Positions 7,906-28,308 are shown, numbered from the stretch's first letter. The stretch: 44,453 nucleotides of DNA from an uncultured Candidatus Saccharibacteria bacterium (GCA_964357615.1 CAYHMC010000010.1:1-44453), one strand, 5' to 3'. The notes: generated from the sequence alone by a model not told the origin. Made by a program: numbers and translations.

Positions 7906-8001
7906 TATTGTTGCTGAAAAAGGATTTGTAGTTGATATATAAATTAATCACTAAAATTAATTGCTTGGGCGTTCTTACACCCTGCTTCATATGGGATGTA
8001 T

Positions 8002-8119
8002 CCCGTTAGAAATCGCGGACGCATATAAAAGTTTATGATAAATAAAAAAAATTTGCCAAATATATTTAAAACAATAGCTCGCATAACGCTTTCTGCGTCT
8101 GCGTCCTATTTCTAATGGG
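8002..8119 (+). mobile_element. MITE-like palindromic element, copy A. Terminal inverted repeats are CCCGTTAGAAAT / ATTTCTAATGGG. It is flanked by ATGTAT / ATGAAT, and the 3' copy is the secY start codon.
   Basis: Inverted termini plus an extended imperfect stem (CGCGGACGC / GCGTCTGCG). It is homologous end to end with copy C and shares termini with copies B and D. Confidence 0.45.
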
Positions 8120-9415
8120 ATGAATAAAATATTGAATCTTTTTAGAATTCCAGATATTCGCAAAAAATTATTTATAGTTTTGGGCTTACTTATTGTTTTT
8201 CGTCTTTTTGCCTCTATTCCGATTCCTGGAGTAAATTCAGAAGCATTGACTGCATTTTTCGGTAGCAGTCAGCTTTTAAGTTTCATAAATGTTTTGTCTG
8301 GAGGCGGACTTACTAATTTATCTATCGCAATGTTGGGCGTTGGTCCTTATATAACTGCCACTATCATAATGCAACTCCTTACGATGATTTTTCCAAATTT
8401 GAAGAAACTTTATTATGAAGAAGGTGAGCAAGGAAGAGCCAAGTTTAATCGTATATCAAGGTATATAACTGTTCCTCTAGCATTCATTCAGGGATTCGCA
8501 TTTTTAAACCTTTTGATGTCAGAGAATGTTATTCCTCAGTTAGATAAGTTTTCATTTGAAATGATTTCTAACATTATAATTATTACTGCCGGAACTTTGA
8601 TTTTGGTCTGGATTGGAGAACTAATAACCGAACAGAAAATGGGCAATGGTATTTCTTTAATTATTTTCGCCGGTATTATTTCTAGTCTTCCACAATTTAT
8701 AGCTCAGGAAGCTTATAAATACATTGGACCTACTGCAACAACTACAGATTTGCCGACCCACCTTGCATATTTAGCTGTAGGATTAATTGTTATAGCTGGT
8801 GTTGTGTTTATTCAGCAGGGAGAAAGAAAAATTCCAGTTTCTTATGCTCGTAGAGTTAGAGGAAATAAAATATATGGTGGAGTTGCTTCTTATCTTCCGC
8901 TTAAAGTAAATCAAGCTGGAGTTATACCGATAATTTTTGCAATTTCGCTTCTTCTATTCCCACAATTTTTTGCACAAATTATAGCTTCCTTAATTTCTCC
9001 AGAACTTGGAACAAAAGTTGCAGAAACATTAAGCAGGTTTATGTCAAACCAATTGTACTACGGAATTGCATATTTTGTTTTGGTTGTAGCTTTTACATAT
9101 TTCTACACAGCCGTAACATTTGATCCTAAAGAAATCTCTAAAAATCTTCAAAAAAGCGGAGGTTTTATACCTGGAATTAGACCTGGAGAATCTACTGGTC
9201 AGTTTCTTGCTAAAATCATCAATAGAATAACTTTATTTGGTGCATTGTTTTTGGGTGCAATCGCGGTTTTACCAAATGTAGTTCAGGCAATAACTGGGTC
9301 TACTCAGTTAAGTATCGGCGGAACTTCTCTTTTGATTGTTGTTTCGGTTGCGCTTGAAACCATGAATCAAATTGATTCTCAGCTTACTATTCGTGAGTAT
9401 GAAGGTATTAGTTAA
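8120..9415 (+). CDS. secY: Preprotein translocase subunit SecY
   Basis: 431 aa, 10 predicted TM segments, typical SecY N-terminus and position after rplO. Confidence 0.95.
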   Translation: MNKILNLFRIPDIRKKLFIVLGLLIVFRLFASIPIPGVNSEALTAFFGSSQLLSFINVLSGGGLTNLSIAMLGVGPYITATIIMQLLTMIFPNLKKLYYEEGEQGRAKFNRISRYITVPLAFIQGFAFLNLLMSENVIPQLDKFSFEMISNIIIITAGTLILVWIGELITEQKMGNGISLIIFAGIISSLPQFIAQEAYKYIGPTATTTDLPTHLAYLAVGLIVIAGVVFIQQGERKIPVSYARRVRGNKIYGGVASYLPLKVNQAGVIPIIFAISLLLFPQFFAQIIASLISPELGTKVAETLSRFMSNQLYYGIAYFVLVVAFTYFYTAVTFDPKEISKNLQKSGGFIPGIRPGESTGQFLAKIINRITLFGALFLGAIAVLPNVVQAITGSTQLSIGGTSLLIVVSVALETMNQIDSQLTIREYEGIS

Positions 9416-9457
9416 TCGACCTAAGGTTCTTTAGTTGATATAATTATAAAGATGAAT

Positions 9458-9560
9458 CCCGTTAGAAATTATTGTTGTTTCTTGCGGAGATTATATGTAT
9501 TAATTACAAACTAACTAAGCAAGCTTGAATTTTCAGTTATTTGAGTTTGCTTCTAATGGG
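9458..9560 (+). mobile_element. MITE-like element, copy B. TIRs are CCCGTTAGAAAT / GCTTCTAATGGG, with perfect 6-bp direct repeats ATGAAT on both sides; the 3' repeat is the adk start codon.
   Basis: Same termini as copies A, C and D; the interior differs. Confidence 0.45.
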
Positions 9561-26337: not shown

Positions 26338-26844
26338 CTAGAAATAGCTTAACAAAAGTAGGGCTGGTAATTTATATAAACTTAAAACCATTATAAATAC
26401 AATAATTGAAAATAAAATCATTATAAAAAATAACGCTTGTAATATAGAAAACCATATCTCACCTAGCTCAATGTCATTATAAAAATTACCGAGAGCTTGT
26501 TTTTTTGCCCCACTCAGTTGGCTATCATTTTTAAGATAATATCCAGCACCCACATAAGTTATTAAAGATAAAAATGAGGCTGCATAATTTAGAGTTAAGC
26601 TATCAACATTCAGATCTGAACTTGCAAAGACTAATGCAGTATAAATTGGAAAAGAACCAAAATTAATTGATATTAAGGACAATATTAAATATATAATGTG
26701 TTTGCATATAAAAATATAAAGTTTGTATTTAGCTTTGTCTGTCTGGATAGAATGTAAGCTTTTTACATAAATTATGTGCTTAAAAAAAACAGCTAACGCC
26801 CCTAGTAGAAATAGCGATAATGGCAAGAAGATATATAGCTCCAT
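26338..26844 (-). CDS. Hypothetical polytopic membrane protein
   Basis: 168 aa, 5 predicted TM helices. Confidence 0.45.
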   Translation of the reverse strand: MELYIFLPLSLFLLGALAVFFKHIIYVKSLHSIQTDKAKYKLYIFICKHIIYLILSLISINFGSFPIYTALVFASSDLNVDSLTLNYAASFLSLITYVGAGYYLKNDSQLSGAKKQALGNFYNDIELGEIWFSILQALFFIMILFSIIVFIMVLSLYKLPALLLLSYF

Positions 26845-26964
26845 GTTAAAATTTTAACTAATAAATTGAAATTAACAAGTATATTAAAAATATGTAGTCA
26901 ATAATTCTGCTGGTTTTTATTTCTAAAATAAAAATCCGCTATTAATTTAGCGGATGTAGTTTAC

Positions 26965-27061
26965 CCCGTTAGAAACATAATTACACCCCCGCTTGTCTTT
27001 GGGGTATGACTCTAGTTTTTTTGGGCTCGTGGTTTAATAACCTACATGAGCTTCTAATGGG
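26965..27061 (+). mobile_element. MITE-like element, copy D. TIRs are CCCGTTAGAAAC / GCTTCTAATGGG, flanked by GTTTAC / GTTTAG; the 3' repeat overlaps the P450 stop codon.
   Basis: Same termini as copies A-C. Confidence 0.4.
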
Positions 27062-27063
27062 GT

Positions 27064-28308
27064 TTAGTTTGAGATATTTACAGGCATATTCACAAATGAT
27101 CTAACAAGAGGATTGCGATGCATCTCTGGGCCAGCTCCAGCATATGTCATATTCGAAAAGCGTTTTATAAGCTCTTCTAAGACAACTTTTATTTCTATGC
27201 GTGCAAGATTTGCACCAAGACAAACATGTGACCCAATTCCAAATCCAAGGTGTGGGTTTGGTTCACGATTTATATCGAATTTATCAGGATTAATAAATAC
27301 TTTCTCATCACGATTTGCTGATGTATAAACCAAAAGAACTTTCTGGCCAGGATATAAATGCTTACCACTAAGTTCAGTTTTTCGAATTACTGTTCTTGTA
27401 AATGTTCTAACTGGAGTTACATGTCTTACAATTTCTTCAATAGCGTTTCTAATTAATTCAGGCTTAGATTTAAGCAATGTTAGTTGTTCTGGATTTTCAA
27501 TAAATTGGGCAATTCCACCAGAAATTGCATTGCGCGTAGTTTCATTGCCCGCAACAGTTAGAAGCACAAGCAACATATTTAATTCATCAATTGATAATGC
27601 TTTGTATTCATTTGTTTCCTGCATTTCATTTGAACTGTTTGAAATATTTGATTCGTGCGCAGAAAGTAATCCTCCACTCTTAGCGCCAAGAAGCGTGCTT
27701 ATAATGTCATTTTTTGGATTGACTATTCTATCTTCTGCAACATCCCTCATGTAACGACCAAATGCTAAAAATGCTTCAGCTACCTTATACATTATCTCTG
27801 GATTGTCGTAATTCCCGTCTGCCATTATAAGTGCGTCAGACCATTCACGCAGTTTTCCAAGGTCTTCCAATGGCATACCAATAAGTCTTGCAATCATAAA
27901 AATTGGAAGTGGAGCCGAAAGATCGCTAACTATATCGCTTTTGCCCTTAGCAATAATTTGATTCATTAACTCTATGGTAAACATTCTTATTTCTTCACCC
28001 AACATTTCTACTCGACTACGAGTGAAACCCTTATTAATTAATTGCCTGACTTTTGTGTGATGCGGTTCATCGTCATCAATTAGTCCAAAGGGGACTGGAT
28101 TTCCTACTCGAACACCTTTTGCTGATGTAAAAATGTTTTGGTTTCTTGAAATATAATCAACATCTTTGTGAGTTGTAATTATCCATATACGACTAGTTTC
28201 AGACCAATGTACGGGGTCATTATTTCGAAGTAGGCGAAAACGCTCGTACATATCAGGTGAATCATCCCACGCATCTGGTTTTAGCCAGTCTATCTTTTCC
28301 AAGTTCAT
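27064..28308 (-). CDS. Cytochrome P450 monooxygenase
   Basis: Heme-ligand loop FGIGSHVCLGANLA, I-helix AGNETT, EIVRH (ExxR). Confidence 0.9.
   Translation of the reverse strand: MNLEKIDWLKPDAWDDSPDMYERFRLLRNNDPVHWSETSRIWIITTHKDVDYISRNQNIFTSAKGVRVGNPVPFGLIDDDEPHHTKVRQLINKGFTRSRVEMLGEEIRMFTIELMNQIIAKGKSDIVSDLSAPLPIFMIARLIGMPLEDLGKLREWSDALIMADGNYDNPEIMYKVAEAFLAFGRYMRDVAEDRIVNPKNDIISTLLGAKSGGLLSAHESNISNSSNEMQETNEYKALSIDELNMLLVLLTVAGNETTRNAISGGIAQFIENPEQLTLLKSKPELIRNAIEEIVRHVTPVRTFTRTVIRKTELSGKHLYPGQKVLLVYTSANRDEKVFINPDKFDINREPNPHLGFGIGSHVCLGANLARIEIKVVLEELIKRFSNMTYAGAGPEMHRNPLVRSFVNMPVNISN

Follow-up and report, generated by a model that had tools for sequence, protein, structure and literature searches.

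A Hairpin-Forming, MITE-Like Repeat Family at Translation Start Codons of Patescibacteria, Probably Accommodated by Translational Coupling

Introduction

Correia elements (NEMIS), ERIC and RUP are hairpin-forming, non-autonomous intergenic elements of ~100–150 bp that are co-transcribed with their neighbors and can alter their expression. Rickettsia palindromic elements (RPE) are selfish palindromes of compact genomes that lie in frame within coding sequences and are translated. Elements of the IS1380 family have CC ends and 4–5 bp duplications. In translational coupling, a short upstream ORF stops within a few bases of the next start codon, and terminating ribosomes unwind local structure and re-initiate downstream. 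The transposon piggyBac duplicates 4 bp (TTAA) and has 13-bp repeats that end in CCC/GGG, as well as subterminal repeats placed asymmetrically (PMC5381638), and IS1380 is its prokaryotic relative (PMC10813416). Here we describe a family of 81–125-bp repeats resembling MITEs (miniature inverted-repeat transposable elements), four copies of which had been reported in a preliminary description of a 44,453-nt stretch of DNA from an uncultured Candidatus Saccharibacteria bacterium (GCA_964357615.1, CAYHMC010000010.1:1-44453; hereafter the window). We put at roughly 0.7 the probability that this is a widespread non-autonomous, hairpin-forming, MITE-like family whose insertions at start codons are made nearly harmless by translational coupling.

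The element resembles piggyBac and IS1380 in its 4-bp T..A-type duplication, 13-bp terminal inverted repeat, CCC...GGG ends and asymmetric subterminal repeats, its GC stem abutting one repeat (0 nt) and standing 4 nt off the other. Unlike both, it has a variable pyrimidine/purine base (Y/R) between the duplication and CCC/GGG, none of its 159 exact duplications is one of the palindromes TTAA, TATA, TCGA or TGCA, and its orientation is tied to an asymmetric target. Its repeats do not resemble the ISEcp1 ends CCTAGATTCTACGT/ACGTGGAATTTAGG, with which they share only CC..TAGA, and neither tblastn nor phmmer found a match to the ISEcp1 transposase in the fetched loci. We consider the link to IS1380/piggyBac weak. 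Correia, ERIC and RUP elements differ from it in duplicating TA, in being found in one genus or family each, and in not sitting at the start codon; we know of none that rebuilds a start codon or ends a reading frame 4 nt before a gene. With RPE the element shares a compatibility with gene expression, but an RPE-like mode of in-frame intragenic insertion was rejected, since just 2 of 137 elements lie inside open reading frames (ORFs), and its own frames stop just before the gene. Coupled leader cistrons (ATGA overlaps, "bicistronic design") would be matched by the UAA-CGGG-AUG or AUGA junctions of the element, with the difference that here the cistron would be delivered by mobile DNA and its stop codon would lie inside a terminal repeat.

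Element Structure and Target Duplication

The preliminary description placed copies at 8002–8119 (A), 9458–9560 (B), 12440–12555 (C), and 26965–27061 (D), with flanks ATGTAT/ATGAAT (A), ATGAAT/ATGAAT (B), ATGGAT/ATGGAT (C), and GTTTAC/GTTTAG (D). All of these are borne out, and the termini read CCCGTTAGAAA(T/C) and (A/G)(T/C)TT(C/T)TAA(T/C)GGG. The genes secY (8120), adk (9561) and the bPH_2 gene (12556) begin at the base after ...GGG, and the stop codon of a cytochrome P450 gene (complement of 27064–27066) lies within the flanking repeat of D. A and C are homologous over their full length, B and D having only the termini in common, and long hairpins are predicted for all four (minimum free energy −34 to −38 kcal/mol, z −2.6 to −4.8). 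With up to two mismatches allowed, the window holds 11 matches to the terminal 12-mer where 4.45 would be expected, and 0 of 100 shuffles reached 11.

Further copies, which a mobile element had been predicted to have, abound. We analysed 273 elements on 236 contigs, 137 of them from genome contigs and 136 from JGI metagenome contigs that form a replicate set. A gene start at the element edge was called for ORFs of at least 50 codons, which gives 74 start-associated elements in the genome set and 52 in the metagenome set. A pattern scan of species-representative genomes returned at least 120 loci, most from Patescibacteria of many classes, with Planctomycetota, Desulfobacterota/Thermodesulfobacteriota, Omnitrophota, and Nitrospirae among the matches listed. 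The same scan of JGI metagenome contigs gave many further copies among the matches listed, and that of IMG/VR gave none. The termini are shared across phyla (the 12-nt repeat is identical) although the interiors are unrelated. Full-text searches of the literature, repeat sequences included, returned no description of this family.

Each element has the form Y-CCCGTTAGAAAT...ATTTCTAACGGG-R, in which the terminal inverted repeat is 13 bp long and has T:A or C:G as its outermost pair, and over 99% of the outer-helix cells of the 12–13-bp repeats are paired. The letters of the 6-bp direct repeats originally proposed are right, but the duplication is 4 bp long and comprises the inner positions only. 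This 4-nt repeat (−5..−2 = +2..+5) is exact in 79 of 137 elements (shuffle mean 12, maximum 23) and in 159 of 273 overall, whereas a 6-bp duplication, perfect in just 21/137 and mismatched at its outer positions, was rejected. Positions −1 and +1 form a Watson-Crick pair in 133 of 137 elements (T:A 65, C:G 65). Being complementary, these outermost bases of the flanks are part of the element and not of the duplication, as recurrent cases such as ATGAAC|...|GTGAAA show, in which the pair is not duplicated. The CCC/GGG ends are invariant, with one variable complementary base outside them. A 2-bp duplication with a 14-bp repeat was ruled out as well: a change at −2 or −5 is matched by one at +5 or +2 (ATGAGT/ATGAG, ATGCGT/ATGCG), and the duplication is therefore 4 nt, not 2. 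Most of the 159 exact duplications are of the type TNNA (TGAA/TTCA 68, TAAA/TTTA 38, TTGA/TCAA 17), and none is one of the palindromes TTAA, TATA, TCGA or TGCA.

Several unusual arrangements were seen in the collection. Mini-hairpins of ~28 nt, made of two terminal repeats and a 2–4-nt loop (L052, L061, L079, L101, L109), are often nested with full elements or lie beside them. In L014 (7674–7895), just the 6 nt ATTCAT separate two full elements; a later copy thus went into the duplication of an earlier one. In L125 (~5898–5912), a truncated left repeat (CCCGTTAG) is joined straight to the ATG of a small GIY-YIG gene, which could be a remnant of deletion or excision.

Occupied and Empty Sites in Relatives

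Unoccupied orthologous sites, for which the preliminary description had asked, are present in relatives, the empty adk and secY sites being spread over L123, L124, L125, and L126. In L123 (SecY 89% identical), B and C stand at the same sites, their interiors diverged to ~55–60% identity (by eye) with repeats and flanks kept, and A is absent, the sequence reading GGG|ATGAATAAAATATTG. The adk site is empty in L124 (SecY 80%; TATTAT-cattct-ATGAAAATT) and in L125 (SecY 78%; TATAAT-tttcat-ATGAAAATT); the secY site of L124 is also empty, L15 and secY being only 5 nt apart there. In empty sites the duplicated bases are present once. The genes downstream of the 74 start-associated copies fall into 106 Pfam families with no more than two members each.

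The elements have therefore moved on evolutionary time scales, and copies before unrelated genes, precise empty sites and a significant duplication support the proposed non-autonomous, MITE-like mobile element. The family combines four features of MITEs: terminal inverted repeats, a duplication of fixed length, dispersed copies at non-homologous sites that are too short to code for a transposase, and precise empty sites. Rfam, at gathering and at permissive thresholds, gave no match to the element, only two tRNAs and a SAM riboswitch elsewhere, and copies C and A returned only sub-threshold noise (rli60, WsnRNA46).

Three independent assemblies (L001, L002, L123) break inside the secY junction or a little upstream of it, at 7963 and 8021 of the window and, in L123, 25 nt before secY, as expected of a multi-copy repeat. 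The same ribosomal-protein operon of the relatives also holds unrelated repeat families (L126 2327–2370 and 3560–3603, L125 1363–1590), namely a hairpin, TTGTCCCCCACCGC...GCGGTGGGGGAC, and a tandem repeat, TTAGTATCATTAGTAC.

Reconstruction of the Start Codon

An ORF starts at offset 0 from the element in 74/137 cases in the genome set and 52/136 in the metagenome set (126/273 combined), with 0–8 at offsets of 1–9 nt. Elements ending in T..A are nearly confined to A|TGNN of start codons, where they stand in 91 of 110 cases; those ending in C..G do so in 35 of 148, and these use GTG. The T..A type dominates within Patescibacteria and the C..G type outside. In both, the start codon is composite: the last purine of the element and the TG of the duplication together make ATG or GTG, and so the coding sequence is untouched. 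The original ATG stays upstream as a relic (A at −6 in 64 of 74), and it is retained in old orthologous copies despite the divergence of their interiors.

The earlier reading of a target preference for ATGNAT-type sites is supported; the tie to start codons is very strong, and that to stop codons just occasional. In the same loci, start-codon NTGAA sites amount to about 10% of the non-genic TGAA/TTCA sites, and a tetranucleotide preference alone is therefore inadequate to explain the start-codon pattern. A few upstream ORFs, that of the P450 gene at D among them, stop within the duplication at TAA or TGA, and 14 end at the TAG of the left repeat. General targeting of stop codons was rejected, as such long ORFs are few and are missing at most copies of the TAAA type.

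The window is a ribosomal-protein/secY/adk region of an AT-rich genome (GC ~34%). Shine-Dalgarno motifs are missing before most of its genes, and the interval from S5 to L15 (6920–7905) has no L30 gene; both fit Patescibacteria and an initiation that is Shine-Dalgarno-independent or leaderless. An identical SecY protein is present on a contig from the 0.1-µm fraction of Hainich groundwater, and the nearest SecY homologs with a taxon name are from Liptonbacteria, Harrisonbacteria, and Paceibacterota, i.e., Patescibacteria, or the candidate phyla radiation (CPR). In four genomes a −10 box precedes the relic or unoccupied ATG of adk by 6–7 nt. From its sequence adk looks leaderless, with B inserted at +2..+5 of the transcription start. 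TANNNT at this spacing precedes the relic ATG in 21 of 74 element-bearing genes, against 73 of 636 others in the same loci, a control set based on rough start calls. An outward promoter inside the element was considered and discarded, since A, B, and C contain no sense-strand sigma-70-like site and the right repeat makes a poor −10 box.

Short Reading Frames Ending Just Before the Gene

The right repeat carries a TAA that lies 4 nt before the rebuilt start codon (ATTTC-TAA-CGGG|ATG), and we counted the sense ORFs that begin with ATG, have 15 codons or more and end there. Such ORFs are present in 29 of the 74 start-associated copies, against a mean of 6.8 and a maximum of 16 in 2000 shuffles of the interior. 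No similar excess is seen in the other two frames (gene frame 7 vs. 7.1 shuffled; TGA frame 8 vs. 5.6). Among the controls, reversed interiors gave 7, the antisense strand 2, and elements away from starts 7 vs. 10. The metagenome set replicates the result, with 15 of 52 vs. 4.9 (maximum 13) and none in antisense. Their start is either the relic ATG or an ATG within the AU-rich loop.

Frames opened by the relic ATG span the whole element in 18 of 46 cases (5.8 shuffled). Of these through-ORFs, the TAA closes 12 and a TGA that overlaps the ATG closes five, and only one is in frame with the gene, that is, 12/23, 5/13, and 1/10 of the respective frame classes. Relays of abutting ORFs from relic ATG to gene were found in 24 of 46 copies vs. 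11.7; they occur in A, C and the L123 copies, and in the B and C of L123 the second ORF ends at the TAA of the repeat. This excess of short ORFs ending 4 nt before the gene suggests translational coupling.

Hairpin Structure and Subfamilies

One subfamily, with a GC stem, comprises A, C, and 26 others. In its extended hairpin 92% of cells are paired, and changes on both sides are seen in 9 of 24 pairs. The 3' arm carries a tandem hexamer (GTCCGC-GTCC, GATCGC-GATC, GACCGC-GACC, GTTCGT-GTTC), so that stem and 4-nt bulge vary together. Across the 74 start-associated elements, wobble pairs in the outer stem number 11 G.U vs. 2 A.C at positions 3 and 7, and 3 vs. 6 at position 10; the GC-stem subfamily has 22 G.U vs. 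9 A.C. We take this asymmetry as suggestive, and not as proof, of an RNA structure; at position 10 it runs opposite. A covariance model of the arms only, aimed at decayed copies, gave no usable matches because it did not span the real loops of 50–60 nt.

A sub-subfamily from Saccharibacteria (L024, L051, L062, L038, L054) has the common interior motif TCGRATAGGGTTCGG, which encodes NRIGFGR in a short ORF. The right arm also resembles the 3' tail of 16S rRNA (UUUCUAA).

A Model for Tolerated Insertion

We propose that a transposase acting in trans would make a 4-nt staggered cut; the end architecture is nearest to IS1380/piggyBac. Ribosomes would load by the original signals of the gene, which at many genes may be the 5'-terminal AUG of a leaderless mRNA, and would translate through the hairpin, possibly co-transcriptionally, before the 3' arm exists. 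They would then terminate at the UAA (UAA-CGGG-AUG) or at UGA and re-initiate at the rebuilt start codon. Insertion would thus do almost no harm, even in secY and adk or in genes for ribosomal proteins and tRNA synthetases.

Several observations weigh against this interpretation. The evidence that ribosomes may read through the element is statistical, and related copies within the collection are non-independent samples. A long coupling ORF is present in only ~40% of the copies at starts, and B has none. The peptides are unconserved beyond the parts encoded by the repeats, and the signal would therefore be an open frame and not a protein. Nine start-associated copies (L006, L018, L032, L042 at 4813, L057, L086, L089, L091 at 5102, and L096) have the left flank AC(T/C)TGT, with no relic start codon and no visible duplication; their UGU pairs with AUG only through G.U wobble, on the sense strand. 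A variable outermost base pair is unusual in transposon ends. Orientation is a further difficulty. The GC-stem subfamily has 23 copies in sense and 0–1 in antisense to the gene, and a 93-nt subfamily (Desulfobacterota and others), mostly located away from gene starts, has a duplication that reads T-R-A-A from the same element end in 21 of 21 copies and never TTTA or TTCA. An orientation fixed to an asymmetric duplication is unusual for a DDE element with symmetric ends, and as it holds even off gene starts, orientation is coupled to the asymmetric target by the insertion process itself. Finally, the preliminary description had suggested a look for a cognate transposase elsewhere, and neither a transposase nor a long copy bounded by the repeats was found in ~1.7 Mb around the 273 elements; repeat pairs 300–5000 bp apart, ORF clustering, ORFs next to solo repeats, and IMG/VR did not reveal an autonomous partner either.

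A bolder version of this model is that the family is a transposon lineage not described before, one that has specialised in translation start codons and has ends built for that niche. We regard this extension as tentative, and somewhat less probable than not. The niche features would be the last purine that restores the start codon, the UAA placed in the terminal repeat 4 nt upstream of it, a left repeat that is open in the relic-ATG frame, and an interior kept open. Each insertion would make the host gene coupled to a leader ORF ("bicistronic"), and leaderless mRNAs would become hairpin-capped. Integration would be orientation-specific at the asymmetric T-R-A-A target, by an enzyme that is possibly of a new kind and shared by Patescibacteria, Planctomycetota, Desulfobacterota, and Omnitrophota.

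The genomes of CPR/Patescibacteria are tiny and dense in genes and are thought to be poor in mobile DNA, yet in hundreds of lineages this repeat family occupies ribosomal-protein operons and the very start codons of essential genes. If coupling is true, it would be a case of selfish DNA whose design renders it harmless, since it restores the start codon and brings its own leader ORF, and a natural counterpart of engineered bicistronic cassettes. It would also offer sequence-level evidence on leaderless or Shine-Dalgarno-independent initiation in unculturable organisms. On the practical side, the copies interrupt assemblies and lead to mis-annotated start codons and small ORFs, and their insertion polymorphisms can serve as strain markers. 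The orientation-specific integration machinery is a worthwhile target in itself.

Alternative Explanations

The strongest competitor is a plain selfish MITE, whose start-codon sites would come from an (A)TGAA preference together with the purging of harmful insertions, the short ORFs being a by-product. That TGAA/TTCA leads among the duplications (68 of the 159 that are exact) speaks for it, as do an orientation tied to the target even away from genes and the many start-associated copies, more than half, that lack a long short-ORF, B among them, with peptides that are unconserved. We nevertheless consider it unlikely, because only sense strands, the TAA frame and copies at gene starts show the ORF excess, which persists against the control with reversed interiors and recurs in the second collection. 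Through-ORFs moreover shun the in-frame class (1/10 vs. 12/23 and 5/13), and the relic ATG has been kept in old orthologs whose interiors are only ~55–60% identical by eye.

A different mode of movement would be that of a single-stranded DNA hairpin mobilized by an HUH (Y1) transposase, as with the PATEs derived from IS200/IS605 and the REPINs moved by RAYTs; the element would then insert beside a short asymmetric motif in one orientation. Insertion of such PATEs and REPINs is 3' of a fixed tetra- or pentanucleotide. The whole element is indeed one hairpin with compensatory changes, its G.T mismatches favor the sense strand (22 vs. 9), it is strictly oriented to T-R-A-A, and arm-only mini-hairpins exist; like REPs and REPINs, copies are dispersed intergenic hairpins of ~100 nt formed by two inverted arms. 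REPs are reported to have a GTAG/CGTC tag and no target duplication (PMC3733652). The element lacks this tag and has a duplication, one that varies with the site (TGAA, TGGA, TGAG, TGCG, TAAA, TTGA) and is single in empty sites, while IS200/IS605 and REPINs produce none. It also has true terminal inverted repeats in place of subterminal hairpins, and no TnpA or RAYT gene was seen near the copies, which makes this mode of movement quite improbable.

We find it very improbable, too, that the element is an integrative module of a tyrosine or serine recombinase in which the repeated bases are the crossover core common to element and target. A hypothetical circle junction, ...TAACGGG-RTNNAY-CCCGTTA..., would consist of two 12-bp inverted arms and a 6-bp spacer; an asymmetric core would set the orientation, as it does at tyrosine recombinase sites, and the repeat of one element can hold another (L014). 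The core, however, varies within one subfamily and measures 4 nt, not the 6–8 nt (tyrosine) or 2 nt (serine) of such enzymes, the target flanks show no arm-like conservation, and no recombinase gene recurs near copies. Compared with integron attC sites (RYYYAAC...GTTRRRY), the GTT/AAC polarity is reversed, the 5' arm here bearing GTTAGAA and the 3' arm TTCTAAC.

The preliminary description named as an alternative a structured leader by which the start codon is sequestered. Such a cis-regulatory RNA, thermometer- or attenuator-like and vertically inherited, is scarcely credible: its hairpins are stable and pair with the A and U of AUG, the repeats and flanks of orthologous copies are better conserved than the interior and the ACYTGT class wobble-pairs the whole AUG, but only two AUG bases are otherwise paired, empty sites and unrelated downstream genes contradict a gene-specific family, no Rfam family is at or near threshold, and copies also lie away from gene starts and bear a target duplication.

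Copies in the Window

With the terminal pair included, copy A (GC-stem subfamily) extends from 8001 to 8120 (+) as T + CCCGTTAGAAAT...ATTTCTAATGGG + A, the last A being that of the start codon of secY (8120–9415, +). Its left duplication, TGTA (7997–8000), has one mismatch to TGAA and forms the relic ATG with A7996; the TG of the right one, TGAA (8121–8124), completes the secY ATG. The relic ATG opens a first short ORF (7996–8028, MYPVRNRGRI*). A second, of 26 codons (8035–8115), begins 6 nt after it, stops at the TAA of the right repeat (8113–8115), 4 nt before the secY ATG, and has a homolog in L050. Upstream of the spacer and copy A, and overlapping the L15 stop, is a strong promoter-like site (7877–7906, +; TTGAAA-18-TATAAT with TG, 11/12 matches).

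Copy B (9457–9561, +; T + CCCGTTAGAAAT...GCTTCTAATGGG + A) provides the A of the ATG of adk (9561–10238, +) and is flanked by TGAA on both sides (9453–9456, 9562–9565). A TATAAT −10 box (9439–9444, +) lies 7 nt upstream of the relic ATG (9452), from which a 20-codon ORF (9452–9514, +) runs to a stop 46 nt before adk. A TTG at 9525, within the copy, is in frame with adk. Copy C, of the GC-stem subfamily and homologous to A (12439–12556, +; T + CCCGTTAGAAAT...ATTTTTAACGGG + A), provides the A of the ATG of the bPH_2-domain gene (12556–13122, +), with TGGA duplications at 12435–12438 and 12557–12560. It contains a chain of three abutting short ORFs (12434–12551, +): 12434–12478, 12472–12513 joined by an ATGgTGA overlap, and the GTG-started 12513–12551 joined by a TAGTG overlap, which stops at the TAA of the right repeat, 4 nt before the gene ATG.

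Copy D (26964–27062; C + CCCGTTAGAAAC...GCTTCTAATGGG + G) is of the C..G-ended type, with TTTA duplications at 26960–26963 and 27063–27066. The latter reads TAAA on the minus strand and gives the stop TAA of the cytochrome P450 gene (27064–28308, −). D is located between this stop and a terminator-like hairpin. The P450 gene itself (Pfam p450, E 1e-27) is unusual for a Patescibacteria-like genome. In addition to these four, a degenerate fifth copy lies at 24154–24231 (+; C + CTCATTAGAAAT...ATTTCTAACTGG + G; flanks TAAA/CAAA), the right arm of which now codes for residues 4–9 of an HMA/DsbD_2 protein (start 24207).

Two further features of the window were noted. A SAM riboswitch (Rfam RF00162, 62 bits) lies at 16882–16982 (+), upstream of an ORF without Pfam match (17027–17521). 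The stretch 18100–19500 has 48% GC, compared with ~34% elsewhere, and adjoins a tRNA-Met (18005–18077). Its two ORFs (18454–18828 and 18854–19378) have no Pfam matches, and it may be foreign DNA integrated at the tRNA.

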